64,000 nt of DNA, from the NCBI GenBank assembly GCA_001791305.1, contig MGEI01000005.1, positions 340,208-404,207 of the forward strand. Direction: 5' to 3'. The notes under the pieces were generated by a model. It saw only the letters and a list, made by a program, of their open reading frames with translations, was not told the origin of the DNA and ran no database searches. Within the stretch, counting starts at the first letter, position 1. The number at the start of each line of letters is the position of its first letter. This DNA is from Candidatus Uhrbacteria bacterium RIFCSPLOWO2_01_FULL_47_17 (GTDB lineage Bacteria; Patescibacteriota; Patescibacteriia; UBA9934; GWF2-40-263). Below, one piece after another: positions 14,620-63,389 of this stretch. The position numbers and the translations under genes are program-made.

Positions 14620-14648
14620 TTGACAAAAAGTCCAAAATGTGATATATT
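14620..14648 (+). promoter_or_regulatory. strong sigma70 promoter at the head of the accessory array
   Basis: TTGACA (14620-25), 17 nt, TG-a-TATATT extended -10 (14640-48). Confidence 0.75.
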
Positions 14649-15015
14649 AAGGACGTAAAAATCTTTACAATTATGGGGAGAGAGCTGCGCTATCCAGTCC
14701 CATTTTGATAGCAAATTCAAGGTATTGCCCGAGTCACATCGTGGCCGTATTTTTGAGAACCAATGATTGGGTATTTCTCTCGTTTGAAATAAGTAATCAT
14801 TGGTTTTTTTGTTCATCACCATTCGGGAGGCAGCGTGCACAAGCTCATTCTGGATCTGAAGAAGTTCTGGTTCCTGTGGAACAAGGTCCAGCCGGATTGC
14901 CGGTCGACCCTCCTCGAGGAGTTCCTGTTCAACCCTCGTCGATTCGAAATGCGGTTCCAAGCGGAACTCAACTTCCAACTCGAATACAGCCGTCGTTGGC
15001 GGTAAGGAGAGCGAC

Positions 15016-15418: not shown

Positions 15419-15619
15419 GTCAACATCCTCTCACTTAGCCTCGCGCGAATGAGAGACCTGCTCTTTGAAACATTTTCGATCTGCCCGCAGCTGCTTCACA
15501 GCTGCGGGACTCGACTCTGAACATCACTTTGCGTCTCTCGCGAATGTGGTGGTCGGACTGAGTCTGGTTAGTGAGTTTTTTCAACAACATGATCGGCATG
15601 TCCGGTCGGAGGTTCTTTC

Positions 15620-16786
15620 ATGAAGTACAGCATCCTGTTCCTGGTGTCCTTGTTCCTTCTCGGTGCGTGCGGGACGTTCGAAGAATCGAATGCTCCGGCG
15701 CCTGCGACCGAAGAGGATTTGGAAATGGCCGAGTTTCTCGACTGCTCGGAAGTCGGTGACTGTGACGATTCGTTTCCGGACATCAACATCACGATCGAAC
15801 TCGATTGCGAGTCGGTCGATTCGAAGAAAAAAGGCGACATCTGCGTGTCGGTCTGCAACGAGTGCCAGAGCGGCTCCGACTGCATCGACACGGATGCCGA
15901 CTGGTATCCGGACACGTGCGTGACGCCCGTCGAAGCTCCGCCTGCGCGTGAACCGCCGCCGGTTTTGGTGGCTTGCGGTGGGACATTTTTTCCGCTCGGT
16001 GAACTGTGCAGTGGTGCATCCGGTGTGTGTCAGGAAAACGGCACACGCGAATGTTTCGAAGGCAAGCTCATCTGCTCGACGGATCCAAAGGGAAGCGCAT
16101 CGCTCGCGACCAATGAAGTCTGCGACGGTAAGGACAACGATTGCGACGGAGAGACGGATGAAGGTACGTCGCTCGTTTGGTACTTTCCGGACGTGGACGG
16201 TGATGGCTACGGCACAAGCGGCAATGCGCTTCTGAAGCCGGTCGAAGTCTGCACGAATGGATTGATTCCATCCGGCTACGTCTACAAAAGCGGTGACTGC
16301 GATGACAGCTACGATACAATCTACCCTGGCAAGAATTGTCCGTTTCCTGACAGTAACAGTGCATCCAAGTTGATCGTGATCCTCAAGTCATCGAAGAAGA
16401 CAAATATGGTTGGGTACGAAGATGACCCTACAACGTTCTACTTCAAGATTGCAAAGACTCTCGAGGAAGTCGCCGGCAAGTGGAGCAGTGATTATTTTCA
16501 GTTCGATACAGAAAGCGGATTCGCCGAGCTTGCTTTGAACGCGACGGATAAGTATGTCCGGTTCAACACGATCGACGCACCTGGGTGGTGGTCGACGTGC
16601 GGTGGGGCGTTCAACGCATTCAACGCAATTGATGGGGGATTCGCGCTCAATCCTAAGCTCAAGGTTTATCAGCTCAAGAACGGAGCATGGATCAACATGA
16701 CGAGCAAGGTGGAGATGTACGAGCAACCCAACGACGCAAGCAAGACCGACAGCGGTGACCTGTGCTCGGCTCTGCTCAAGCTTTAG
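15620..16786 (+). CDS. Cys-rich lipoprotein with putative metal-binding repeats (MopE-related CDGxDNDCDG type)
   Basis: lipobox LLGAC, EVCDGKDNDCDGETDE, DVDGDGYG, GDCDD..IYPG. Confidence 0.82.
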   Translation: MKYSILFLVSLFLLGACGTFEESNAPAPATEEDLEMAEFLDCSEVGDCDDSFPDINITIELDCESVDSKKKGDICVSVCNECQSGSDCIDTDADWYPDTCVTPVEAPPAREPPPVLVACGGTFFPLGELCSGASGVCQENGTRECFEGKLICSTDPKGSASLATNEVCDGKDNDCDGETDEGTSLVWYFPDVDGDGYGTSGNALLKPVEVCTNGLIPSGYVYKSGDCDDSYDTIYPGKNCPFPDSNSASKLIVILKSSKKTNMVGYEDDPTTFYFKIAKTLEEVAGKWSSDYFQFDTESGFAELALNATDKYVRFNTIDAPGWWSTCGGAFNAFNAIDGGFALNPKLKVYQLKNGAWINMTSKVEMYEQPNDASKTDSGDLCSALLKL

Positions 16787-16799
16787 TTCCTTTCAACTC

Positions 16800-16881
16800 G
16801 TTCGACCAACTTCGGAAATTCCGAAGCTGGTCGAACCTTTTTCAGAGACATCAATCAAAGTGATTGAGTGATCTGAGAAAG
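16800..16881 (+). repeat. two-hairpin intergenic element, copy A
   Basis: GTTCGACCA..TGGTCGAAC, CTTTTT, CAGAGA..GATCTG, AGAAAG. Confidence 0.85.
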
Positions 16882-16894
16882 TTTCTGGGTTCCT

Positions 16895-16921
16895 GTTATA
16901 GGCGGGGTCCCTTGACCCCGC
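16895..16921 (+). repeat. REP-like palindrome, copy 1
   Basis: GTTATAGGCGGGGTCCCTTGACCCCGC; near-identical at 22607 and 24106. Confidence 0.75.
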
Positions 16922-16934
16922 GGAGGTGTTTTCC

Positions 16935-18275
16935 ATGAAGTACGGAATTTCGTTTCTGGTGTCCTTGTTCCTGCTCGCGGCGTGCGAGACGACCAATGTG
17001 TACCCGACCGAGGTGGTCGAGGTACCGAAGGCGGAAACCGCGGTGAGTTGCAGTGCGGTCGATCCGACTCAGATCGAGATCAAACTCGACTGTGCGTCGG
17101 TCGGCGCGTTCCAGCACGGCGATTCTTGCATCAGCAACTGTACGCTCTGCAGCTCGCAAGAGATCTGCATCGATACGGACGGCGACAAGTGGAAGGACAC
17201 GTGCGTGCAAGGTGAGACGCCTCTTGAAACCCCGCCGGCTCACGAGCCGACGGCGACAACGGAAGCTCCGCCCGCTCGCGAACCGCCCGTCGAAGTTCAG
17301 TGCGGCGGTACGTTCGGCATGATCGGAACTCCGTGCAGTGGCGCGTTCGGCGCATGTGCGGAAAACGGCGTACTCGAGTGTGCTGACGGCGAATGGGAAT
17401 GTTCGACGGACGTGAAGGGAAGTGAATCTCTTGCGACTGTCGAACTGTGCGACGGCAAGGACAACGATTGCGACGGGGAGACGGATGAAGACTACACGTC
17501 TGACCTTGGCAAGCAGTGCTTCGGCCTGAATCAGTGCGGTCTTGGCCCGGGCGTCGTGGTTTGCAACAAGAAAGGAGAAATCGCGCAGTTGTCCTGCACG
17601 GTCGGAACCCCGTCGACGGCATATGCAACTCTGGATTCGCCGGAGCTCTGCGATGACATCGACAACAACTGCGACGGAAAGATCGACGAAGGCTGCGCGC
17701 TGAAAGTCGATCCATCCGAAGAAGACAATGACAAGGACAGTTACATGGCTCTGAATGACTGCGACGACAACGACGCGTTGATCCATCCCGGTCTCGACAA
17801 CTGCCCGACATTCCAAGGTCTGACCAAGGACAGTTACAAGCTGGTTCTGGTCTGGGGCGGAGCGGAAAACAGTCCGTACACCGCCAACGCGTATTTCAAG
17901 TTCGGAAAGAGTGCGGTCGAGTTGCAGTTCAGCTCGAAAGTGTTCTTCGACAACACGTGGGAAGTGAAAAGTTTCCCGCAATACAATTACACGGCGACGG
18001 ATCTGGAAAAGCAGTCGTCGCACGTCGCGTTCAACGTGTTCGGATATCCGGGTTACTGGTATCTGTGTTCGGGGAACGTCGTCGATACGATTTCATTCGC
18101 GCTCTCGAAGGAGCTTCCGAAGGTGTACCTCATCTCGGGCGGCGTCTGGAAGGAGGTGGGCAGCAAGCTTGAAGTGCTCGCAGCAAATGATCTCGAGGTC
18201 GTCAAAGGACCGATTTACGGCGGCGACTACAACAAGAGCAAGCCGGCCTACTGTGCAGCCATGCTGCAACTGTAA
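16935..18275 (+). CDS. Cys-rich lipoprotein, paralog of 15620..16786
   Basis: GGAGGTG RBS, lipobox LLAAC, two CDxxDNxCDG repeats, shared EAPPAREPP. Confidence 0.82.
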   Translation: MKYGISFLVSLFLLAACETTNVYPTEVVEVPKAETAVSCSAVDPTQIEIKLDCASVGAFQHGDSCISNCTLCSSQEICIDTDGDKWKDTCVQGETPLETPPAHEPTATTEAPPAREPPVEVQCGGTFGMIGTPCSGAFGACAENGVLECADGEWECSTDVKGSESLATVELCDGKDNDCDGETDEDYTSDLGKQCFGLNQCGLGPGVVVCNKKGEIAQLSCTVGTPSTAYATLDSPELCDDIDNNCDGKIDEGCALKVDPSEEDNDKDSYMALNDCDDNDALIHPGLDNCPTFQGLTKDSYKLVLVWGGAENSPYTANAYFKFGKSAVELQFSSKVFFDNTWEVKSFPQYNYTATDLEKQSSHVAFNVFGYPGYWYLCSGNVVDTISFALSKELPKVYLISGGVWKEVGSKLEVLAANDLEVVKGPIYGGDYNKSKPAYCAAMLQL

Positions 18276-18290
18276 GCTCCTTCATCAACT

Positions 18291-18377
18291 GTTCGACCCG
18301 CTTCCTGGAAGTTCCAGAAGTCGGTCGAACCTTTTCCAGAGATCCCGATCGAAGGTCGATCGAGGGATCTGAGAATG
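18291..18377 (+). repeat. two-hairpin intergenic element, copy B
   Basis: GTTCGACC..GGTCGAAC CTTTTC CAGAGATCCCGATCGA-agg-TCGATCGAGGGATCTG AGAATG. Confidence 0.88.
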
Positions 18378-18403
18378 TTTTGTTCAACAAAGGAGGGTGT
18401 CCC

Positions 18404-18850
18404 ATGGGTTCAACGGCAACGTCGGCGGTTGTGGTTCAACTGGAACATGAGATCGAGACCACAAAAGATCACCTTGACCAACTCAATGAGCGTTTGCGCG
18501 AGCAGACGACGGTCGGGTGGCTGGCGATCGTCAATTTCATGTTCGGCGGCAGGATTCAGTACGTCCGTATTTCGGATCGGGCCAACAATCCGTTCGATCA
18601 CTTCGACTCCTCGTCGAAACCTCACCGACAGCGCAGCTATGTGAAGGGCTGTTCCGACATTGATCAGGTGCGGGTGCTCTTTAGCGGTTGGAACGAACCT
18701 GAGTTTGAGATGAAGCTCGAAGACGGCCGCTCGCGGATTCCGGGATCGTTTGTTTTCCTAACCAACACGAACTTGGATGCGCTGACCCGGAAGGCTGAAG
18801 CTGTCCTTTCGAGTGAACGGCGCAACAAGAGTTCTGCGCTCGGTCAATAA
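18404..18850 (+). CDS. hypothetical protein (148 aa)
   Basis: AAGGAGG RBS; lies between repeats B and C. Confidence 0.7.
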   Translation: MGSTATSAVVVQLEHEIETTKDHLDQLNERLREQTTVGWLAIVNFMFGGRIQYVRISDRANNPFDHFDSSSKPHRQRSYVKGCSDIDQVRVLFSGWNEPEFEMKLEDGRSRIPGSFVFLTNTNLDALTRKAEAVLSSERRNKSSALGQ

Positions 18851-18853
18851 TCT

Positions 18854-18940
18854 GTTCGACCCGCTTCCTGGAAGTTTCAGAAGTTGGTCGAACCTTTTCC
18901 AGAGATCCCGATCGAAGGTCGATCGAGGGATCTGCGAAAG
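18854..18940 (+). repeat. two-hairpin intergenic element, copy C
   Basis: near-identical to copy B, ends CGAAAG. Confidence 0.88.
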
Positions 18941-18982
18941 GTAATAGTGCCCGCGCAGGAATGCGTCGGCTTGGAGAGGAAG

Positions 18983-19339
18983 ATGATGACCATGCAAGAC
19001 AAAGCGGCGATGGCTGCGTTCGAGACGATTGTCGCGCGCGGGCTTGTGGGGCGTGAGGAACTGAAGCGGTGGATCGTCGATACGCACCTGGATTGGCGCA
19101 AGACTCACTTCAAGATCTTGTTTCGGAACGCCAACAACTCGCGGCGCATCGAGTGCGAAGTGCTCAACCGGCTCGAACCGCTTTCGGATGGTGGTGTGAA
19201 GATGTCGGTCGAGATCACGATGATCACGGCCGGCGCAAGCTCGCAGGTTCCGGAAAGTCCGTGGACCGATGTGCTCTTCGACGCGGACAGGCCGCGCACG
19301 GTTCGAATGAGCAGCATGCTTCGTAAGCGTGCGGCGTAA
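18983..19339 (+). CDS. hypothetical protein (about 118 aa)
   Basis: GGAGAGGA RBS before MMTMQDKA. Confidence 0.65.
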   Translation: MMTMQDKAAMAAFETIVARGLVGREELKRWIVDTHLDWRKTHFKILFRNANNSRRIECEVLNRLEPLSDGGVKMSVEITMITAGASSQVPESPWTDVLFDADRPRTVRMSSMLRKRAA

Positions 19340-19352
19340 AACAAGGAGTTCC

Positions 19353-19559
19353 GTGGAGACTGTCATCAAATGGTTTCCCGCTGCGTGTTTCTTCTTGCTT
19401 GTGCTCGTGATGCTCTTCATCACGGCGCATGTGGGAATGTGGATGTGGCCTGGCATGATCAAAACGTGGCATGGTGTCGCGTATGTGGTCACGCATCCGG
19501 CGGAAGTTGTGGTGGGCTTGCTCATCGCATTCTGTCTGCTCGCAAACGCACTCAAGTAG
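19353..19559 (+). CDS. small two-TM membrane protein
   Basis: AAGGAG RBS, GTG start, two hydrophobic segments. Confidence 0.6.
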   Translation: METVIKWFPAACFFLLVLVMLFITAHVGMWMWPGMIKTWHGVAYVVTHPAEVVVGLLIAFCLLANALK

Positions 19560-19577
19560 TTTGAATACAGGAGGAAC

Positions 19578-19787
19578 ATGCAGATTCAGTTTCGACTGAT
19601 CAACGGACACATCGTTCGCGCGTCCTTCGAAAACAAACCTGAACTCGCCGGATTCGGCGATACGGAGGGGCAAGCGATTGCGGCACTTCTGAAAAAGGAA
19701 AAGGCTCGCAACCTTGAGCTCCAAGCGCTTTACTTCTTGTTACGCAGTTTGCTCGGTTCACATCAGGACGGGTTCCTGGTGAACTGA
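19578..19787 (+). CDS. small hypothetical protein
   Basis: AGGAGG RBS; GDTEGQAIAAL weakly HicB-like (inference). Confidence 0.6.
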   Translation: MQIQFRLINGHIVRASFENKPELAGFGDTEGQAIAALLKKEKARNLELQALYFLLRSLLGSHQDGFLVN

Positions 19788-19809
19788 GATTCGTTCTTTT
19801 CACAACTTT

Positions 19810-19880
19810 CCACGTCGTCTCGAAACGACGTGGCTTTTCCAGAGACTCGCATCGACAGGCGATGCGGTGATCTGCGAAAG
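19810..19880 (+). repeat. two-hairpin intergenic element, copy D
   Basis: different hairpin 1 (CCACGTCGT..ACGACGTGG), CTTTTC CAGAGACTCGCATCG-acagg-CGATGCGGTGATCTG CGAAAG. Confidence 0.85.
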
Positions 19881-19939
19881 TGTTCTGGTGTCTGCACATT
19901 CAATTGCCCACACTAAAACGTGTCGGCTTGGAGATAGGC

Positions 19940-20227
19940 ATGTTGTTTTTCTTTTTGTTCGATCTGGTGTGTCTCTACATCACGGGCAATACGACCATCG
20001 ATCTTTGGGCTGCCAAACTGGTTGTCGTGTTTGGTGGAACCAACCAGGTGGTGAGCATCAACTTCTTGTTCGGTTCGGTGAACATCACAGAGGAAAATTT
20101 GACGCTGTGGATGTGGATCTCAACCGCAATTACCGCTTGGATCCTTTGGGATTTGTTCAAACAGGCGCGTCACTTTTGGCGATGGTTGATGAAACAATCA
20201 CGCGACGAAGCTCAAGTAAAATCGTAG
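19940..20227 (+). CDS. small membrane protein
   Basis: GGAGA RBS, hydrophobic. Confidence 0.55.
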   Translation: MLFFFLFDLVCLYITGNTTIDLWAAKLVVVFGGTNQVVSINFLFGSVNITEENLTLWMWISTAITAWILWDLFKQARHFWRWLMKQSRDEAQVKS

Positions 20228-20237
20228 ACCTCAACTT

Positions 20238-20323
20238 GTTCGACCTGCTTCGGAAATTCCGGAGCCGGTCGAACCTTTTCCAGAGACTCGCATCGAACAG
20301 GTTGATGTGGTGATCTGCGAACG
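20238..20323 (+). repeat. two-hairpin intergenic element, copy E
   Basis: GTTCGACC..GGTCGAAC CTTTTC CAGAGACTCGCATCGA..TTGATGTGGTGATCTG CGAACG. Confidence 0.88.
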
Positions 20324-20345
20324 TTTCTCGTAAGGAGGTTTATAC

Positions 20346-20708
20346 ATGGGAATGACCTTCTGGTTTTTCTTCAGCCTGACCGCCCTTTCGGGTCTTTCGT
20401 TGTTTGTCGACGAATGGCAAAACAATGATCGACTTCGGGCGTTTTTCATCAAAGAGTGGAAGGCGTTTGTTTATTCCTCGTTCTTTCACAAATGTGCGTT
20501 TGCCCTAACAGTGGCTCTCGCCATTGATCACTACAACGAAGTGTTGCCCGTGATCTCGCTCACAAGTTACGTTTGGTCCAGCTGGTTCGTTTCTCGGATC
20601 TTGAATCCAGAACTTGGCGATGACGCAACACAAGACATGTACTCGTCATACACACCCTCACTTCCAGATCCGCTTTCAAACAACCCCCATCCTCATCATT
20701 GGAGTTGA
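20346..20708 (+). CDS. small membrane protein
   Basis: TAAGGAGGT RBS, hydrophobic segments. Confidence 0.65.
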   Translation: MGMTFWFFFSLTALSGLSLFVDEWQNNDRLRAFFIKEWKAFVYSSFFHKCAFALTVALAIDHYNEVLPVISLTSYVWSSWFVSRILNPELGDDATQDMYSSYTPSLPDPLSNNPHPHHWS

Positions 20709-20736
20709 TGCGGTTGCGTAGCGGTTCACATTCCCT

Positions 20737-20800
20737 GGCGATGTCTCATCGCCCTTTTCCAGAGACTCGCATCGATAGGCGATGCGGAGATCTGCGGAAG
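20737..20800 (+). repeat. two-hairpin intergenic element, copy F
   Basis: third hairpin-1 variant GGCGATG-tct-CATCGCC, CTTTTC CAGAGACTCGCATCG-atagg-CGATGCGGAGATCTG CGGAAG. Confidence 0.85.
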
Positions 20801-21666: not shown

Positions 21667-21696
21667 ACCAGACGTAAAATGTCTGGTCTTTTTTTT
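21667..21696 (+). terminator. intrinsic terminator ending the array
   Basis: ACCAGAC-gtaaaat-GTCTGGT then C and T8. Confidence 0.75.
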
Positions 21697-21712
21697 GTGG
21701 TAACGCGCTCTG

Positions 21713-21810
21713 AACCTCCCCCAGCCCCTCCTTGGCAGGAGGGGTGAACGAGCTCTGTAACGTTTCGGAAAACGTTTACCTCCCCTGCCAAGGGGAGGCC
21801 GGGAGGGGTT
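21713..21810. repeat. MITE/REP-like element with two internal hairpins
   Basis: AACCTCCCCCAGCCCCTCCTTGGCAGGAGGGG..CCTCCCCTGCCAAGGGGAGGCCGGGAGGGGTT; related half copy at about 63690-63722. Confidence 0.65.
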
Positions 21811-21811
21811 C

Positions 21812-24103
21812 TTACCGTCTCGCCGTTCCGCCACTCGCCATCTCTTCGAGCTTCACGCTCAACAAATTACTGATGCCGTCATCTCCCATTGTCACGCCGT
21901 ACAAGATGTCCGCCTTTTCCATGGTTGCACGGTTGTGAGTCACAACAATGAACTGTGAGTTCTTCGACAAGTCATCGAGGATAGATGCAAATCGAAGCGT
22001 GTTTGATTCGTCGAGCGCCGCGTCAACCTCGTCGAGCACCACGAACGGCGCTGGATTCACGGCCATGATCGCGGAGAGAAGAGCGATCGAGGTAAGTGCG
22101 CGTTCTCCACCAGAGAGCAAGTTCAACGATTTTAATTTTTTTCCAGGTGGCGTTGCTTGAATATCAATTCCGACGACGCCGTCGTCGTACGCAGCGATGC
22201 GTTCGCGGATCGCATCCGTTTTATCACGCTCCGCTTCGCCCGTGTCTTCGAAGACGCGTTCCGGTGTGACTTCCGTCTCCTCATCGGCTTTCAAATCTTC
22301 TTTCGATAATTTGATGAGCGAACAGGATCCACCGTTGAACAGAATTTTGAAATATTTTTCGAACTCTTTGTTGATCAGAGCAAAGACTTTTTTGGATTGC
22401 GTAGCAATATCTTCGTCGAGTTCGATGACAATCTTCTCTGTCGCGTTGATCGCACTTCGTAAATCTTTTAACTGCTCATCGAGGAACTCGAAACGTTTCT
22501 TCGTATCTTCAAACTCGACCACAATCTCCGGATCGATTCCGCCGATGAGTTCGATTTTGTATCGCAAGCGCTGAATTTCAGGGTAGAGCACATCGGTATC
22601 TATCTTGTTATGGGTGGGGTCCCCAGACCCCGCCAGTGTCTGCCTGTTTGTCCTGGCTTTCACAGCAAAATTCCCCATCGCTTCATCCATTTCACGATTC
22701 AAATTTTTTTGTCGTTCATCAATGCGCGCTGCTTCGATTTGGATCGAGTTGCGTTGATTTTCGAGCAAGTGAATTTGCGTTTGCTTCTCGCGCAACTCGC
22801 GTTGCATATCGATGAGCTCGGTGCGCACTTCTTTTTCTTTTTGTGCGTACGCATCGATCTCGCGCTCTTGCTCGACGAGTTCTGCTTTGATGCGTTGTTC
22901 CTCAATCGCGAGCGAAGCTTTTTTCTCGAGGAGCGCAGGATCTGGTTTGATGTCTTCCGGATTTGGTTTGCGCAAACGTTTGTTGAGTCCGACGACTTTG
23001 TCGAGCACGCCGTCGATTGCGGTGTGAAGTGCGTCGATATCTTTCAGTGATTTTAAATTCTTAAGAAGGACATCCAGTCCGTCGATTTCCTCGACAATCT
23101 TCAACAAGGGAAGTGGCGCCCAGTTTGATTGCGCGCGCACCTTTGTCAGTTCGATTTCTTTTTCAACCTGAAACTGCGCCTGACGACACGCGTCACGCTC
23201 ACGTTGTTTCTCGCGGTACACTTTTTGCAAAGCTGCGAGTCCTGCATCTTCTCCCGTCTCCGAATTCTCAACCGCTTTCGTTCGAGTCTCGATCACCTCG
23301 AGTTCGGAGCGCTTCTCGAGAATGCGCGCATCGATTTCTGTGAACTGTGATTTGATGCCTGCGAGTTCGTCGATCAATTTCCACCAAAGTGTTCCGTAGT
23401 ACGACGTTTCCATTCCGCGCAACTCTCTTTCGACCTCCTCACGTTCCGAGAGTCTCGAAACTTGTCGCTTGAGCGAACGGAGGCGCGGTTCAATTTCCTG
23501 TACGAGCATTTCTACGTCCGTTAAATTTTCGAGTGTGCGCTTCAATTTCAAAATCGCTTCATGGCGTTTGAGCTGAAGCGGCTTTACTCCCGTCGCATCG
23601 TCGAAGAAACTTTTGCGTTCTTCGGGAGTCGACACGAGAATGTGATCGATCATCCCTTGGCCGATCACAGAGTAGGAACGTTGACCAACGTTTGCTTGTG
23701 CGAGGAGGAGTTGAATGTCCGCGAGGCGGGCACTTCCGTCGTTTAAAAGATATTCCGAGTTTCCGTCACGATAGAGGCGTCGGGTGATGGTGACCTCCGA
23801 ATAATCGATTGGCATCATCTTGTCCGAGTTGTCGAGTGTGATCGAAACTTCCGCGAAGCCACTTCGACCTCGACCTTCCGAGCCAGAAAAAATCACATCC
23901 TCGGATTTTTTTCCGCGAAGAAGTTTCATGCTTTGCTCACCCAAGACCCAGCGAATGGCGTCCGCAAGGTTGGATTTCCCCGAACCGTTTGGACCAACGA
24001 TCGATGTTAAAGGATAGCGATCCGCGGCTGGAGGAAGAAAGGATAGCGAGGTTTTTTTTGCAAAGGTTTTGAATCCTTGGACGGAGAGTTTCGACAGGTA
24101 CAT
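21812..24103 (-). CDS. smc: SMC-family chromosome segregation ATPase (short, 763 aa)
   Basis: GFKTF, IVGPNGSGKSN, IGQG, LSGGE, VVLDEVDAALD, VVTH. Confidence 0.9.
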   Translation of the reverse strand: MYLSKLSVQGFKTFAKKTSLSFLPPAADRYPLTSIVGPNGSGKSNLADAIRWVLGEQSMKLLRGKKSEDVIFSGSEGRGRSGFAEVSITLDNSDKMMPIDYSEVTITRRLYRDGNSEYLLNDGSARLADIQLLLAQANVGQRSYSVIGQGMIDHILVSTPEERKSFFDDATGVKPLQLKRHEAILKLKRTLENLTDVEMLVQEIEPRLRSLKRQVSRLSEREEVERELRGMETSYYGTLWWKLIDELAGIKSQFTEIDARILEKRSELEVIETRTKAVENSETGEDAGLAALQKVYREKQRERDACRQAQFQVEKEIELTKVRAQSNWAPLPLLKIVEEIDGLDVLLKNLKSLKDIDALHTAIDGVLDKVVGLNKRLRKPNPEDIKPDPALLEKKASLAIEEQRIKAELVEQEREIDAYAQKEKEVRTELIDMQRELREKQTQIHLLENQRNSIQIEAARIDERQKNLNREMDEAMGNFAVKARTNRQTLAGSGDPTHNKIDTDVLYPEIQRLRYKIELIGGIDPEIVVEFEDTKKRFEFLDEQLKDLRSAINATEKIVIELDEDIATQSKKVFALINKEFEKYFKILFNGGSCSLIKLSKEDLKADEETEVTPERVFEDTGEAERDKTDAIRERIAAYDDGVVGIDIQATPPGKKLKSLNLLSGGERALTSIALLSAIMAVNPAPFVVLDEVDAALDESNTLRFASILDDLSKNSQFIVVTHNRATMEKADILYGVTMGDDGISNLLSVKLEEMASGGTARR
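22607..22633 (+). repeat. REP-like palindrome, copy 2, inside smc coding sequence
   Basis: GTTATGGGTGGGGTCCCCAGACCCCGC. Confidence 0.7.
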
Positions 24104-57620: not shown

Positions 57621-60125
57621 ATGGCACAAAAAAAACAACATTCTGAACCGGAAGAACCCGTTCAAGATATCACGACAAATGGGATTGGACGCATTGAGCG
57701 CCGAAACATTGCCGATGAAATGCAAACCGCATATCTCGACTACGCCATGTCCGTCATTGTTGGTCGTGCGCTTCCGGATATTCGCGATGGACTGAAACCA
57801 GTTCACCGCCGCATTTTGTATTCCATGTGGCAGACGGGACTCCGATCAAGTGCAAAGTTCAAAAAGTGTGCGTCTGTGGTTGGAGATGTACTCGGAAAGT
57901 ATCACCCACACGGAGATTCCGCTGTGTATGACTCGCTCGTGCGTATGGCGCAAGATTTTTCGATGCGCTATCCACTGATCCGCGGACAAGGGAACTTTGG
58001 ATCTCTCGATGGCGACCCGGCTGCGGCGTATCGATATACAGAAGCAAAGCTTGAAACCATTTCGGAAGAATTGCTTGTTGATATCGAGAAGGAGACGGTC
58101 GACTTCATTCCAAACTTTGATGGCACACACAAAGAACCAAAAGTGTTGCCTGCAAAACTTCCAAACTTGCTCATCAACGGAACAGTTGGAATCGCGGTTG
58201 GAATGGCGTCGAATATCCCTCCGCACAACCTCGGAGAAGTTTGTGATGCGGTACTCGCATTGATTCGCGACAAGGATACATCGATCGAGGATCTGTCAGA
58301 GATCGTTAAGGGTCCAGATTTTCCAACGGGTGGAATTGCGTACAGTAATGCGGACATCAAAACCGCCCTCGCAACCGGTCGTGGGGGGGTGGTCGTTCGA
58401 GGCAAAACGGATATTGTGGAAGATAAGAAAGGCAATTTCGCCATTATCATCACAGAAATTCCGTACCAAGTGAACAAAGCAAACTTGCTTATTCGCATTG
58501 CACAGAATGTTCGCGATAAGAAGATCGAAGGGATTAAAGATTTGCGCGACGAATCAACATCCGCCGGTGTTCGTGTTGTTGTTGAGTTAAAAAAAGATGC
58601 GTATCCAAAGAAAGTGTTGAATCGTTTGTATCAAACAACACAACTTCAGGAATCCACACACTACAACATGCTCGCACTTGTGGAGGGTGGAATTTTGCCG
58701 CGCGTACTCAACCTCAAGATGATTCTTGAGGAGTATCTCAAACATCGCCAAGAAGTGGTGAAGCGCCGCACACAGTTTGAACTTACGCGCGCGCTTGATC
58801 GTGCACATATCCTCGAAGGATTGCGCATTGCGCTCGCGCAGATCGACAAGATTATTGCGTGTATCAAGAAATCAAAAGACAAAGAAGAAGCGCGATTGAA
58901 CTTGATCAAACAATTTAAACTTTCCGAGAGACAAGCGGTCGCGATTCTCGACATGCGTTTGCAACAGCTTGCGAACCTAGAGACGTTGCGCATCGAACAA
59001 GAATATGCGGAAAAGATGGCGCTCATCAAAGAGCTTGAGTCTATTCTTGCAAGCGCAAAAAAGATGATGATGGTGATTGCGGAAGAAGTGGAAGGATTGA
59101 AACTCAAGTACGCGTCCCCTCGAAGAACTCAAATCATCAAGTCGGGAATTAAAGAATTCTCGATCGAAGACGTCGTTCCAGACACGGAAACGGTCGTAAT
59201 GATCACAAAAGCCGGATACATCAAGCGCATCGACCCAGACACATTCCGCACACAAAAGCGTGGAGGGAAGGGGGTCGTCGGCATGGCGTCCAAAGATGAG
59301 GATGAGGTCGAGCAAGTATTCTCGACAACCACACACAAAGATCTTCTGTTCTTCACGAGTAGAGGTCGTGTGTTCCAACTTAAAGCTTACGATGTTCCAG
59401 AGGCGTCGCGCATTGCGAAAGGCCAAGCGCTCGTAAACTTCCTCCAACTCGCGCCAGGTGAATCGGTATCCGCGTCGTTGTCGATGGACGAGCTCGCGGA
59501 CTCGAAATATCTTCTCATGGTGACAAACAAGGGAACGATCAAGAAAACAGATTTGTCCGAGTATGATTCCGTTCGCAAGTCGGGGTTGATCTCGATCAAA
59601 CTCCGAGACGGCGACAACCTCCAATGGGTTCGTCCAACGTCCGGAAAAGATCAGATCATGCTCGTGACATCCGGTGGACAAGCGGTTCGCTTCGAAGAAA
59701 AAGGCGTGCGCCCAATGGGTCGTGTCGCCTCTGGTGTTCGAGGAATCAAGCTCAAGGGTGATGATTCTGTGGTTGGAATGGGAATCATTCCAGGCTCCTC
59801 ATCGAAGAAACCGGGAGAGAAAGAGATTTTGGTTGTGATGGAAAACGGATACGGAAAACGCTCGGACCTTATCGAGTATAAGGTCCAAGGACGTGGCGGA
59901 TCCGGAATTAAAACCGCAAATATCAGCAAAAAGACAGGAAAAATCGTCGCGGCGCATATCGTCGATACGAAAGACGAGCGTGATATGTTCATTATTTCCG
60001 GCGCGGGTCAGGTGATCCGATCTGAACTGAAGTCCGTCTCTGTCCTCGGTCGCGCAACCCAAGGAGTTCGCATTATGCGATTCAAGAAGCCAGATGACAC
60101 GGTCGCGAGTGCTGCCCTCATTTAG
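57621..60125 (+). CDS. gyrA: DNA gyrase subunit A
   Basis: [30 protein letters not shown], GyrA box QKRGGKG. Confidence 0.97.
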
Positions 60126-60163
60126 CCAAAAAGACTGTGGTTTTTGCCACAGTCTTTTGATTT
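60123..60163 (+). repeat. 41-bp direct repeat, left copy (terminator-like hairpin)
   Basis: TAGCCAAAAAGACTGTGGTTTTTGCCACAGTCTTTTGATTT identical to 63349..63389. Confidence 0.92.
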
Positions 60164-60176
60164 TTCTAACAAATCA

Positions 60177-60205
60177 TTGACATTTTTGGGATTTTATGTT
60201 ATTAT
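60177..60205 (+). promoter_or_regulatory. promoter of the DGR target gene
   Basis: TTGACA, 17 nt, TG-t-TATTAT. Confidence 0.7.
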
Positions 60206-60333
60206 CTTCCGTCATTTGAATTTCGCACAAGGTGATTTTCGGTGACATGCAGTGTCTACTTTTTGTTCGCTCCGAGCCTCGCGACGGAATTTCCGTCACA
60301 ACCGCTTGATCGGAACAAAATGCGGAGGAAGAT

Positions 60334-60993
60334 ATGGCAAAGCAGTCTTGGAGAATCAAGCTCGAGCAATGGCTCGCGGCAAATGGTGATGAAGGCATGT
60401 CCGGAGTAGTGGATCATCTTGCGATTTTGACTCGCGCGACGAGTCTTGTTCGTAAGCCCGGATTCAAAAAAGCTCTGGAGAAATTTTTGGACGAATGGGC
60501 CGGTCTTCCCGAACAAAAGGCCGATCCGATCCTCCGTCGCCTCTTTGAAGACGAAACGATCACCATCGCTCCGTGCGACGGTTCCCGGTACGTCGCCAAA
60601 GAAAAAGGCGTGTTCAAAGCGTACATCGAAGGTCTCTTCGCAAGTTGGGGTCTCGACAAGCCTGGACAGTCCACGGTTGCCGCGAATGTCTCCGTCTACG
60701 AGATGATCCGGGACGCGACCTTCGCTCAGATGTTCGGCTCTCTCGGGCCAGATCTCGACAAACTGTGTCTCTCACAGCATCAGATCGTCGAGTTCTGCGA
60801 AACGCATTCGGCACGTCTTCGGCAAGAAGGCTACGCCACATTCTTTCTTTTTAAGGAAGGCGATCAGTTCTACGTTGCGGGCGTGCGTGTCCACGCGGGC
60901 GGCCTGAGCGTGTACGTCCGCCGTCTCGAGCGCGACGATGTCTGGTATGGCGAGTTTCGTCATCGTCTCGTAGTCCCGCAACTGACCGTTTGA
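60334..60993 (+). CDS. DGR target (variable) protein
   Basis: GGAGG RBS; C-terminal codons form the VR; ends RHRLVVP. Confidence 0.9.
   Translation: MAKQSWRIKLEQWLAANGDEGMSGVVDHLAILTRATSLVRKPGFKKALEKFLDEWAGLPEQKADPILRRLFEDETITIAPCDGSRYVAKEKGVFKAYIEGLFASWGLDKPGQSTVAANVSVYEMIRDATFAQMFGSLGPDLDKLCLSQHQIVEFCETHSARLRQEGYATFFLFKEGDQFYVAGVRVHAGGLSVYVRRLERDDVWYGEFRHRLVVPQLTV
60865..60978 (+). repeat. DGR variable repeat (VR)
   Basis: 114 nt ungapped match to TR, 16 mismatches, all at TR adenines. Confidence 0.95.
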
Positions 60994-61293
60994 AACTTAT
61001 TCGGATGACACTTTGTTTCTTTGTCCCTTTGACTCTTTTGAGTCCGGGGGATTTTTTTGTATAATGCATTTGCAATCGTGCGATATCTTGTGGCCAAGGC
61101 TACAAGGTCACGATTGTTTGGAATCGTTGTTGAGAATTTTGTTGGCTACGGCTTGCAAAAGAGTGATAATGATTCTGACAAACAAAAACTTTTCAGTTGG
61201 TGCGGTGCGCTTGTGGACTTCTTCGTCCCAAATAAAATTCAGCCGAATTTCTCGTGCACGATAAATCGGCAGTGATCTGGATGGCCCATCGTA

Positions 61294-61407
61294 CAATTCT
61301 ACGTTGCGAACGTGAATGTCAACGCGGACGGCCTGAACGTGAACGTCAACCGTCTCGAGAACGACAATGTCTGGAATGGCGAGTATCGTCATCGTCTCGT
61401 AGTCCCG
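61294..61407 (+). ncRNA. DGR template repeat (TR)
   Basis: AAC/AAT-rich copy of VR; candidate upstream promoter TTGAGT-16-TATAAT at 61038-61065. Confidence 0.92.
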
Positions 61408-61427
61408 AAAATGAAATGTTCTCCTCC

Positions 61428-61769
61428 CTATTGTTTGGGAGGAGTTTTCTTTTCAATATCTTTTTTCCATCCGCCAAGCATTCTTCCAATTTCATCTAAA
61501 TCAACGGAAAGCGCAGTATATTTATCATTCGGCAGGCATTTGTTTTCCCACGCAATTTGTAAAAAGAATTTCACTCCGTCCAGTTTTGAAATACAGATGG
61601 TGAGTCGATTCATTTTTTGCTCACCGGAAAGATATTGCGAAACAAAAATTTGCTCAAGCATTTCGAGAAAGTATCCCTCAATCTTTCCACCAAGATTATG
61701 ACGCGATGTTTTTGGAAAATCTGTAAGCAATTTAAACCAATTTGTATAGGCACTCCTCGTTTTTGTCAT
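61428..61769 (-). CDS. avd: Avd-like four-helix-bundle accessory protein
   Basis: FPKTSRHNLGGKIE, LDEIGRMLGGW; the true start may be upstream across a C10 tract. Confidence 0.85.
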   Translation of the reverse strand: MTKTRSAYTNWFKLLTDFPKTSRHNLGGKIEGYFLEMLEQIFVSQYLSGEQKMNRLTICISKLDGVKFFLQIAWENKCLPNDKYTALSVDLDEIGRMLGGWKKDIEKKTPPKQ

Positions 61770-61824
61770 GACCGAAGGAGTTCGGGGGGGGGGTGAGAAT
61801 ATTAGACATATTCATTGAGCGTTT

Positions 61825-62829
61825 ATGAAAAAATTTAACCGCCGTTACGATGATATTATAACACTCGATAATTTACTTCGTGCATGGGAACAGTTTTTAT
61901 CGGGGAAGAAAAATCGTACGGATGTTGTGGAATTTCAAAATCATCTCATGGATAATATTTGTGATCTACAGCGATCACTCGAAGATAAAACGTATGTGCA
62001 TGGTGCATATCACGCATTTAATATTTCCGATCCAAAACCAAGGAGTATTCATAAGGCAACCGTCCGCGATCGGTTGCTTCACCATCTGATACATTCAGAG
62101 TTGTATGAATACTTCGATCAGAAATTTATTTACGATTCTTATTCGTGCCGAATGGAGAAGGGGACGCATAAGGCTATGAATCGATTCAGAGACTTTGGCA
62201 GAATTGTTTCAAAAAATAATACACGCACCTGTTGGGTATTGAAATGCGATATTCGAAAGTTCTTTGCAAATATCGATCACACAATCTTGAAAGATATTTT
62301 GGCAAAGCATATTGAGGATCGTGATGTGTTGAATCTTCTCGGTAACATCATCGATAGTTTTTCGACGCTCGGAAGAAAAGAGGTTGGTCTCCCGCTTGGA
62401 AATCTCACTTCGCAACTTCTCGTAAACATCTACATGAACGAGTTTGATCAGTTTATGAAGCGAACGGTCAAAGCGGAATATTACATTCGGTATGCAGATG
62501 ATTTTGTGATTTTGCATGAGGATGAGGAATATCTAAAACAGCTCATTCCAAAGATTTCAAATTTCCTCCAGGATCAGCTGGGACTTTGTTTGCACCCGGA
62601 TAAGTTGTTTCTGAAGACGCTTGTGTCCGGCGTTGATTTTCTAGGATGGGTACACTTTCCGCATCATCGGACGTTACGTACGGCCACAAAACGACGGATG
62701 TTCATACGGATTCAGGATCACTCGACACAAGAAACAATTCAATCGTATTTGGGGCTTATGAGACATGGGAATACCCATCAGCTTCAAAAGAATCCTTTAT
62801 TTCTTGACGTAAAGATCAAAGATCGATAA
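61825..62829 (+). CDS. DGR reverse transcriptase
   Basis: KPRSI, RDRLLHH, LKCDIRKFF, GLPLGNLTSQ, YIRYADD, DFLGW. Confidence 0.95.
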   Translation: MKKFNRRYDDIITLDNLLRAWEQFLSGKKNRTDVVEFQNHLMDNICDLQRSLEDKTYVHGAYHAFNISDPKPRSIHKATVRDRLLHHLIHSELYEYFDQKFIYDSYSCRMEKGTHKAMNRFRDFGRIVSKNNTRTCWVLKCDIRKFFANIDHTILKDILAKHIEDRDVLNLLGNIIDSFSTLGRKEVGLPLGNLTSQLLVNIYMNEFDQFMKRTVKAEYYIRYADDFVILHEDEEYLKQLIPKISNFLQDQLGLCLHPDKLFLKTLVSGVDFLGWVHFPHHRTLRTATKRRMFIRIQDHSTQETIQSYLGLMRHGNTHQLQKNPLFLDVKIKDR

Positions 62830-62862
62830 AGTAGAAAAGTAAGAATGTAAGAAATAACTCCT

Positions 62863-63105
62863 ATGATCAATATTGTAAAAACGACGAGCAAAGGACAAGT
62901 CACATTGCCCATGCACTGGCGTAAAAAATTTCACACAAATCGCTATACAATGAAAGAGGTTAATGACACGCTTGTTATTTCTCCACTTGAGGTTGAGTCG
63001 CTCGAAGAAGAGAATTGGACAACAATTTTTGATGCGAAACGTGACAATGAAGGGAAGGGAATCCCGATCGATCAGCTTATTGATACATTGAAGCGCACAC
63101 TCTAG
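62863..63105 (+). CDS. AbrB/MazE-type antitoxin
   Basis: TSKGQVTLPMHWRKK; upstream of toxin. Confidence 0.8.
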   Translation: MINIVKTTSKGQVTLPMHWRKKFHTNRYTMKEVNDTLVISPLEVESLEEENWTTIFDAKRDNEGKGIPIDQLIDTLKRTL

Positions 63106-63111
63106 CTTTCT

Positions 63112-63351
63112 ATGGATAAAATCGAAAAGCTTTTACGTAAAGCAAAGAAAGCAGATCGTGAGCGGTTATTGGCAGTATTGGAGGCTGTTCGAGAGGGGAA
63201 ACTCGAGGGATTGCACGTAAAACGACTGACAAATTCCGCTTTTTATCGGGTTCGTGTTGGAGATTTCAGGATTATTTTCTCAATCGATCACGCAAATAAA
63301 CGTATTTTGATCGAATCTGTCTCATCTCGAGACGAGAATACATACAAATAG
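63112..63351 (+). CDS. RelE/ParE-family toxin
   Basis: VKRLT..YRVRVGDFRIIF..SRDENTY. Confidence 0.85.
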   Translation: MDKIEKLLRKAKKADRERLLAVLEAVREGKLEGLHVKRLTNSAFYRVRVGDFRIIFSIDHANKRILIESVSSRDENTYK

Positions 63352-63389
63352 CCAAAAAGACTGTGGTTTTTGCCACAGTCTTTTGATTT
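63349..63389 (+). repeat. 41-bp direct repeat, right copy
   Basis: identical to 60123..60163; begins with the toxin TAG stop. Confidence 0.92.

Follow-up and report, generated by a model that had tools for sequence, protein, structure and literature searches.

An orphan-gene array in a Candidatus Uhrbacteria genome

The window analysed here is a 64,000-nucleotide (nt) stretch of Candidatus Uhrbacteria bacterium RIFCSPLOWO2_01_FULL_47_17 (contig MGEI01000005.1, positions 340,208 to 404,207). The host genome, G000, has a size of 1.07 Mb in five contigs, which are given below as C-numbers; other genomes are given as G-numbers. Members of its genus are ultra-small bacteria of groundwater and lakes. 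The window holds an array of 12 co-oriented open reading frames (ORFs), bracketed by one near-consensus promoter and one U8 terminator, in which an intergenic element made of two hairpins recurs (Table 1). We describe the structure, strand and distribution of this element and the gene shuffling in the arrays that carry it, and we consider what the element may do. An original prediction had described the array as punctuated by the element, with units at 16800, 18291, 18854, 19810, 20238 and 20737. Hairpin 1 does start at each of these positions and ends directly before CTTTT. Of the array's 11 gene junctions, six have the element, and at one further junction there is a different structured spacer (15419-15600). 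The pattern CAGAGA-N15-40-GATCTG gave six matches in the window, all on the + strand, compared with 0.22 +/- 0.48 in shuffled sequence. Five of the six units folded more stably than shuffles (z = -2.9 to -6.8), while copy F was weak (z -1.3).

The array proteins had no Pfam match beyond PF11617, found in the two predicted lipoproteins, and a weak, sub-cut-off match of the 79-aa ORF. None was matched in NCBIfam (7 tested) or PHROGs (12 tested). The 122-aa ORF had nine database matches, one of them its own record, and the only named one was from Ca. Uhrbacteria.

Table 1. Features of the array and element copies elsewhere in the host genome; positions lacking a contig number are those of the window.
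Feature	Position	Strand	Remarks
Sigma-70-type promoter, TTGACA-17-TATATT, extended TG	14620..14648	+	11/12 matches; kept in G001, G002, G006, G007
boxA-like motif, as before the lineage's 16S/23S rRNA genes	14661..14674	+	motif match
Leader RNA, GGG-AGAGA-stem, loop pairs downstream (pseudoknot)	14676..14712	+	covarying
Leader terminator-like hairpin, U7 tail	14755..14810	+	carries UCUCU complementary to leader AGAGA
Orphan ORF, 37 aa	15016..15129	+	homolog near end of G002 array
Orphan ORF, 79 aa	15179..15418	+	weakly like a C5:105980 array gene: 36% over 36 aa, pairwise E 3.5e-6
Structured spacer type II, with GCTCTTTGAAACA	15419..15600	+	one copy in window, at least 6 in C5:105980 array
Cys-rich predicted lipoprotein, 388 aa	15620..16786	+	weak PF11617
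Element A	16800..16881	+	hairpin 1 16800-16836, hairpin 2 16837-16881
Cys-rich predicted lipoprotein, 446 aa	16935..18275	+	PF11617; paralog of 388-aa gene
Element B	18291..18377	+	hairpin 1 18291-18330, hairpin 2 18331-18377
Orphan ORF, 148 aa	18404..18850	+	no family
Element C, near copy of B	18854..18940	+	hairpin 1 18854-18893, hairpin 2 18894-18940
Three orphan ORFs (122, 68, 69 aa), no elements between	18971..19787	+
Element D	19810..19880	+	hairpin 1 19810-19833, hairpin 2 19834-19880
Orphan ORF, 95 aa, hydrophobic	19940..20227	+
Element E	20238..20323	+	hairpin 1 20238-20274, hairpin 2 20275-20323
Orphan ORF, 120 aa, hydrophobic	20346..20708	+
Element F	20737..20800	+	hairpin 1 20737-20753, hairpin 2 20754-20800
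Last two orphan ORFs, 106 and 165 aa	20817..21658	+
Array-ending intrinsic terminator	21667..21696	+	9-bp stem, U8; faces convergent smc-like gene
Extra element copy	C3:96595-96660	coding strand	~30 nt 5' of dnaK, behind an insertion of two orphan genes that separates grpE from dnaK
Extra element copy	C5:338557	-	between first two genes of operon upstream of 16S gene
Two extra element copies, larger hairpin 1	C4 array of G000	coding strand	between genes

The element is an RNA module of two stacked hairpins

Seven genomes of the genus supplied 50 copies of the element, 49 of them scorable, and metagenome contigs added another 16. Hairpin 2 has the consensus CUUUUY-CAGA-GA-...-loop-...-GA-UCUG-N-GAAAG. 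The stem core proposed for it originally was retained, but CTTTT and the GAAAG-like tail are not flanks. They pair with each other, and hairpin 2 is therefore one symmetric helix of ~22 bp, with a length of 18-23 bp in 65/65 copies and 21-23 bp in 57/65. Counted from its first pair, CAGA/UCUG forms base pairs 7-10 and the non-standard G.A/A.G pairs are 11-12. Pair 8 is A-U in 48/49 copies, and pairs 9 (G-C) and 10 (A-U) are the same in 49/49. CAGA/TCTG is nearly as invariant as predicted. The tandem G.A/A.G pairs, which are invariant in the six window copies, occur in only 35 of the 49 scored genus copies, although at least one non-standard pair is found at those two positions in 46/49. The proposal of an invariant, protein-recognised G.A motif found no support: the conserved part is CAGA/UCUG, and G.A/A.G varies among relatives. 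The U run accompanied all 56 CAGA...TCTG hairpins of the arrays, though the search pattern required none.

The inner stem of hairpin 2 covaries among the window copies, and the two extra G.T pairs reported for copy E were confirmed. To the genus-wide alignment, A3, 47 of the 50 genus copies contributed (one N-masked and two short aberrant copies were left out), and L101 was dropped as a duplicate. Across the 46 distinct aligned rows 90.9% of cells were paired, and slid registers dropped this to 39-53%. Both-side changes were seen in 69 cells compared with 24.5 +/- 4.7 in shuffles, which do not control for relatedness and which score a structure derived from the same sequences. G.T outnumbered A.C by 119 to 42, indicating that it is the coding strand that folds. 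The strand bias was also larger with RNA than with DNA parameters (3.2 vs 0.8 kcal/mol). These results bear out the view that selection acts on a single-stranded structure and place it on the mRNA strand.

Hairpin 1 was said to vary in sequence yet always to pair, and it was present in 66/66 copies, with varying sequence and length and sometimes doubled. Its energy was <= -6 kcal/mol in all 66 copies compared with 30/70 control sites, and its distance to hairpin 2 was 0 nt in 51/66. It is directly followed by four or five U in 66/66 copies, the tail being CUUUUCCA in 53/66, and the eight bases on its 3' side hold at most five U in every copy. On its 5' side a G-poor tract contains GYUCYUU in 30/65 copies, compared with 17/965 post-stop control windows. 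The element is an mRNA-strand RNA module in which hairpin 2 is stacked on a sequence-variable hairpin 1.

The element is confined largely to one genus

Using the pattern and a covariance model, we found further copies in G000 and the element in six of seven other genomes of the genus; the one lacking it is 56% complete. For the rest of the family, represented by 65 genomes from other genera, the same two methods gave no copy. Multi-copy matches in the public genomes were mostly in records titled Candidatus Uhrbacteria, with two labelled otherwise. A looser pattern applied to 162 genomes of the order gave single matches in five genomes outside the genus. Single matches in other phyla, at 20-29 bits against the 35-62 bits of array copies, were taken to be chance. 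In viral contigs one pattern match was weak under the model (21 bits) and was rejected. An Rfam 15 scan returned no family at the gathering threshold, and relaxing the limit to E<=10 brought up nothing but tRNA and noise below that threshold, in agreement with the original remark that the element was not recognised as a named family. A published description was not found in the open-access literature; the supplements of RNA-motif surveys, which could list the element, were outside the scope of this search. The element is a real, uncatalogued RNA family.

Arrays carry 3-15 copies. Where the contigs reach, an array begins close to an rpsP-like gene and extends up to a convergent smc-like gene, both names being assigned by eye. 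Copies of G000 outside the window array all have two hairpins and lie on the coding strand between co-oriented genes. The copy at C5:338557 follows the first gene of an operon (C5:333937-340380, - strand) that lies just before the window and encodes an AAA+-like ATPase, a ThiF-like protein, a small ubiquitin-like ORF and others of no name (assigned by eye). The orphan pair between grpE and dnaK (C3:95790-96686, L212), which five of the seven other genomes of the genus lack, has a perfect CAGAUC/GAUCUG hairpin in front of it and a full element behind it. By eye, a sequence like the element also precedes dnaK in G006 and, in degenerate form, in G002, both under the covariance-model threshold, and five other genomes of the genus have a 25-184-nt gap before dnaK without the element. 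Copies in other operons, one of them just before dnaK, make it less likely that the element is a strong terminator or a site dedicated to recombination.

Hairpin 2 resembles an RNase III substrate

A bacterial RNase III substrate is described in PMC3867540 as spanning 22 bp from one distal box to the other, its 4-bp proximal box adjoining the cut; mismatches at the target site allow single-strand cuts that leave stabilising 3' hairpins. One set of boxes suffices, according to PMC1540722. Hairpin 2 provides a double helix of the required ~22 bp. CAGA/UCUG lies where the proximal box of a 22-bp substrate would be, and the G.A pairs lie at the predicted scissile step in the helix centre. The Aquifex enzyme, according to PMC3074117, requires A-U/U-A at the second and fourth positions of the proximal box and G-C at the third, and takes no account of the distal box. 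In a register inferred from the helix ends, the lower half of hairpin 2 has A-U at positions 2 and 4 in 48/49 and 49/49 copies. The host encodes an RNase III (C5:404415-405182) with the glutamine motif of the double-stranded RNA-binding domain, and also RNase J.

From the sequence, we lean towards the element being an RNase III processing site at the gene junctions of one long transcript, with hairpin 1 shielding upstream 3' ends. RNase III would bind hairpin 2 with CAGA/UCUG as proximal box, and cuts are predicted at GA^UCUG in the 3' arm and/or CAGAGA^ in the 5' arm, where the G.A mismatches would bias the enzyme towards nicking one strand only. The upstream product would end in hairpins that block 3' exonucleases and the downstream product would start typically 24-70 nt 5' of the start codon, and each gene or gene pair would thereby get its own stability. 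Both cleavage and stabilisation at the element are what we infer from its form.

The rRNA processing stalks of the lineage offer a comparison. The core of the 16S stalk, GTGATTGCAACG, is conserved in sequence across the family (L129-L157, 16S flanks of 28 genomes) and has U-A/G-C/A-U in the matching central register in 24, 28 and 27 of 28, and the 23S stalk of G000 reads AAGA-UC/GA-UCUU. In generic genomic hairpins a paired W-G-A was found at bp 7-9 in 10/360 and anywhere in 62/360. The match in register between stalk and element appears to lend moderate support to RNase III processing.

Several observations weigh against this assignment. The stalk register was picked after the fact and the cut sites in the stalks are unmapped. 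Among 15 genomes the 23S AGAUC core was present in just G000, G005, G006, G010 and G014, and a clear 23S stalk was not found in most. For the E. coli enzyme, PMC1540722 gives a preference for A-U at the third position of the proximal box and for U-A/U-G in the distal box, and the element has neither, its pairs 1-2 being C-G and U-A and its pair 9 G-C. This would lower just an E. coli-type assignment, given that the Aquifex enzyme, as described above, ignores the distal box and prefers G-C at 3. The upper half-site is degenerate, with A-U/U-A at position 2 in 11/49 copies and G-C/C-G in 19/49. Conservation is stronger in the 5' CUUUU than in the GAAAG with which it pairs, and this points to a further role of the sequence itself, for example in pausing. 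The boxA-like GYUCYUU before hairpin 1 is unexplained by processing.

The tract before hairpin 1 could instead be the signal for a single-strand endonuclease. RNase Y (or J) would cut this G-then-U-rich tract, and the hairpins would guard the downstream 5' end from RNase J. The tract is pyrimidine-rich and G-poor with a conserved G, and PMC11780869 describes RNase Y as an enzyme that cleaves AU-rich single strands of RNA behind a G and that is stimulated by structure further downstream. RNase J is present in the host, and an RNase Y-like gene was seen by eye. However, a signal of this kind does not require hairpin 2 to keep an invariant sequence at its centre, the motif precedes hairpin 1 in under half of copies, and hairpin 1 follows the upstream rather than the downstream gene (see below). 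We consider this explanation improbable.

The array leader and the possibility of antitermination

The boxA-like motif of the leader lies before 39/43 rRNA genes of the family and order. It scored 10-12 in all three array leaders of G000 and 13 in G002, and was weak in G001 and G006; it is probably the boxA of the lineage. In the family, a boxA-like ACAAYTGA motif precedes 16S and unlinked 23S genes. The leader stem varies as GCUG/CAGU, CCAU/AUGG and GCCG/CGGU, and variants of the pseudoknot were seen across 14 copies. The same leader heads two other orphan arrays of G000 (C4:67256, - strand, and C5:105980, + strand), with further copies in L187-L194 and L198, and the G007 array lacks the pseudoknot leader. 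The invariant AGAGA and UCUCU (14655-14810) could pair as a switch. With its boxA-like motif, pseudoknot and terminator, and no Rfam match, the leader is a candidate riboswitch or attenuator.

The type II spacer (window 15419-15600; C5:106500-110400) consists of a hairpin, the motif GCTCTTTGA(A/C)ACA near classical boxA, a second hairpin and a GU-rich stem. The seven genome matches of this motif all fall within the window array and the C5:105980 array. A small hairpin, GGCGGGGTCCC-TGACCCCGC (16902-16922; also in G001 and at C5:107100), recurs closely 5' of several array genes. Past the array terminator a long GC-rich inverted repeat (21710-21815) is a REP-like (repetitive extragenic palindromic) dispersed repeat, and in G003 and G006 hairpins of a similar kind, CCCCC...GGGGG, are found behind several elements.

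The leader also enters into a second reading, in which the element acts in pausing or attenuation within Nus-type antitermination and which is compatible with RNase III processing. Hairpin 1 and CUUUUY would be a weak terminator or pause, the boxA-like motif would reload NusB/NusE after each gene, hairpin 2 would form only on read-through and the leader would be the master switch. The U tract directly behind hairpin 1 in all 66 copies fits this. GYUCYUU resembles the first part of boxA (UGCUCUUUAACA and AUGAUCUUUGAAA, the sequences taken for comparison from PMC13753749), the array leaders have the rRNA-type boxA motif, and nusB and nusG are present in the host. Against the lineage's rRNA boxA profile, however, the pre-hairpin motif gave no match and its mean score equalled that of shuffles. 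The tract of at most five U is able to pair with GAAAG and is shorter than the U7-U8 of the leader and array end in G000. None of the six window elements was called as an intrinsic terminator, and the 7-8-nt U tract right after the hairpin was not found. One copy sits directly before dnaK, and neither Rho nor a NusG paralog was found in the host genome. Antitermination also does not explain the fixed 22-bp length or the position of CAGA/UCUG. It seems to us a possible but not a probable account of the element.

Genes are shuffled at the elements

Gene order differs between genomes: 7/15 shared single-copy pairs were swapped, counting single-copy families common to two arrays and excluding the multi-copy families F1 and F3. 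This comparison among relatives had been proposed with the original prediction. The borders of elements are frequent ends of long homology tracts. Hairpin 1 sequences with the same upstream gene in different genomes had a similarity of 0.338 compared with a background of 0.246 +/- 0.026 (33 pairs, which are non-independent, one gene family supplying most). In the same comparison, the elements upstream of the same gene were no more alike than background. Since hairpin 1 tracks the upstream gene and upstream elements do not track the gene behind them, the moving unit looks, from these sequences, like a gene plus its trailing element. The elements are 60-100-nt direct repeats, and ordinary recombination between them would delete, duplicate or move such units. 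Direct-repeat recombination would be enough to explain the scrambled order without a dedicated integrase; this route behind gene scrambling is what we infer.

We also considered that the arrays are integron-like cassette arrays, in which a trans-acting recombinase would use the elements as recombination sites in single-stranded DNA. The swapped gene pairs, the homology tracts ending at element borders and the gene-plus-element insertion before dnaK in G000, together with the similar sequences in G006 and G002 and the short gaps in five other genomes, would fit such sites. But attC is a single nested hairpin where the element has two in tandem, one element unit can be common to several genes, the strand bias is greater under RNA than DNA parameters and no single crossover base was found. 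No integron integrase was found in the genome and no recombinase near the array, just two tyrosine recombinases 34 and 96 kb off. The partial (catalytic) domains of both matched XerC/XerD/XerA-type models best, above the integron integrase model TIGR02249. We regard this explanation as very improbable. Of the three roles first offered for the element, processing has gained support from the helix length and the proximal-box position. A strong terminator or attenuator is weakened by the copy directly before dnaK, and a dedicated recombination site is unsupported because there is no attC anatomy and no integrase nearby, though genes do shuffle at the elements.

A broader scheme would join processing and movement into an integrase-free cassette system built on RNA punctuation. 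The riboswitch-like leader would drive the arrays, and a gene with its trailing double hairpin would be the unit both of RNase III processing and of movement, within and between arrays and into housekeeping operons such as that of dnaK, possibly via processed RNA. We think this scheme unlikely as a whole.

The genome's reverse transcriptase showed no link to the array. It lies in a locus resembling a diversity-generating retroelement (60123-63389), which is bracketed by an exact 41-nt direct repeat. The locus has a target gene (60334-60993) with a variable repeat (60865-60985), a template repeat (61294-61414, 85% identical), an Avd-like ORF (61428-61769) and the reverse transcriptase (61825-62829). 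Elsewhere in G000, ARAGORN called a transfer-messenger RNA with an atypical tag peptide (C5:535030-535421), possibly a false call.

Comparison with known systems

In T7 early mRNA, RNase III hairpins are placed between the genes of one transcript. The element resembles these hairpins (R1.1 and kin) and other bacterial substrates in its length of about two helical turns and its proximal-box preferences, and in having unpaired positions at the cut, which favour cleavage of one strand only, with a stabilising hairpin left at the 3' end (PMC3867540, PMC1540722, PMC3074117). Unlike the T7 hairpins, it is chromosomal, is one sequence family repeated 3-15 times and is a predicted site only. It is also fused to a variable upstream hairpin, has a boxA-like tract before it and lies where genes are shuffled.

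The leader boxA-like motif is placed as in the rRNA leaders of the lineage, a likeness to rrn and lambda nut signals, and the order of each unit (boxA-like motif, hairpin, RNase III-like stem) is like that of rrn and nut signals with RNase III stems. In E. coli, boxA lies close to the 16S processing stem, according to PMC4807359. The likeness is incomplete: the leader matches the rRNA motif, but the units hold only the first part of boxA, hairpin 1 lacks a conserved boxB-like loop, and no N-like protein or Rho was found.

With integrons and clusters of attC sites lacking integron integrases (CALIN), the arrays share one upstream promoter, small orphan genes, structured repeats and shuffled order. 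Unlike attC, hairpin 2 is a symmetric helix without bulges in a tandem of two hairpins, and there is no nested R''-L''...L'-R' hairpin with extrahelical bases. Multi-gene units, a coding-strand pairing bias, copies inside housekeeping operons and the lack of a detected integron integrase are further differences.

Repeated hairpins, with tandem G.A pairs in many copies, are shared with tandem interspaced guide RNA (TIGR) arrays, REP sequences and bacterial interspersed mosaic elements (BIME), kink-turns (k-turns) and selenocysteine insertion sequences (SECIS). TIGR arrays are described in PMC12045711 as combining dual spacers that contain box C/D with a Tas protein that has a Nop domain; in contrast, the element arrays have ORFs and no spacers between repeats, and PF01798 (Nop domain) was not found in G000 with a model that may miss Tas proteins. 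Unlike REP/BIME, k-turn and SECIS, the element has a single orientation, has no 3-nt bulge beside the G.A pairs and does not keep G.A invariant. The tandem G.A pairs were rejected as a k-turn- or SECIS-like motif, being not invariant and replaceable by a possible 2-nt bulge in 19/49 copies.

Bacteria of the candidate phyla radiation have many orphan genes whose expression and turnover are almost uncharted. For these genes the element gives a precise prediction, a cut at GA^UCUG by the host RNase III, and provides a junction signal tied to the rRNA processing and boxA signals of the lineage. A chromosome may be able to maintain an operon processed in the manner of T7 in which the predicted processing sites are also the places where gene content and order become scrambled. 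If it is true that these sites also drive mobility, they would offer a route to gene-cassette evolution without an integrase.

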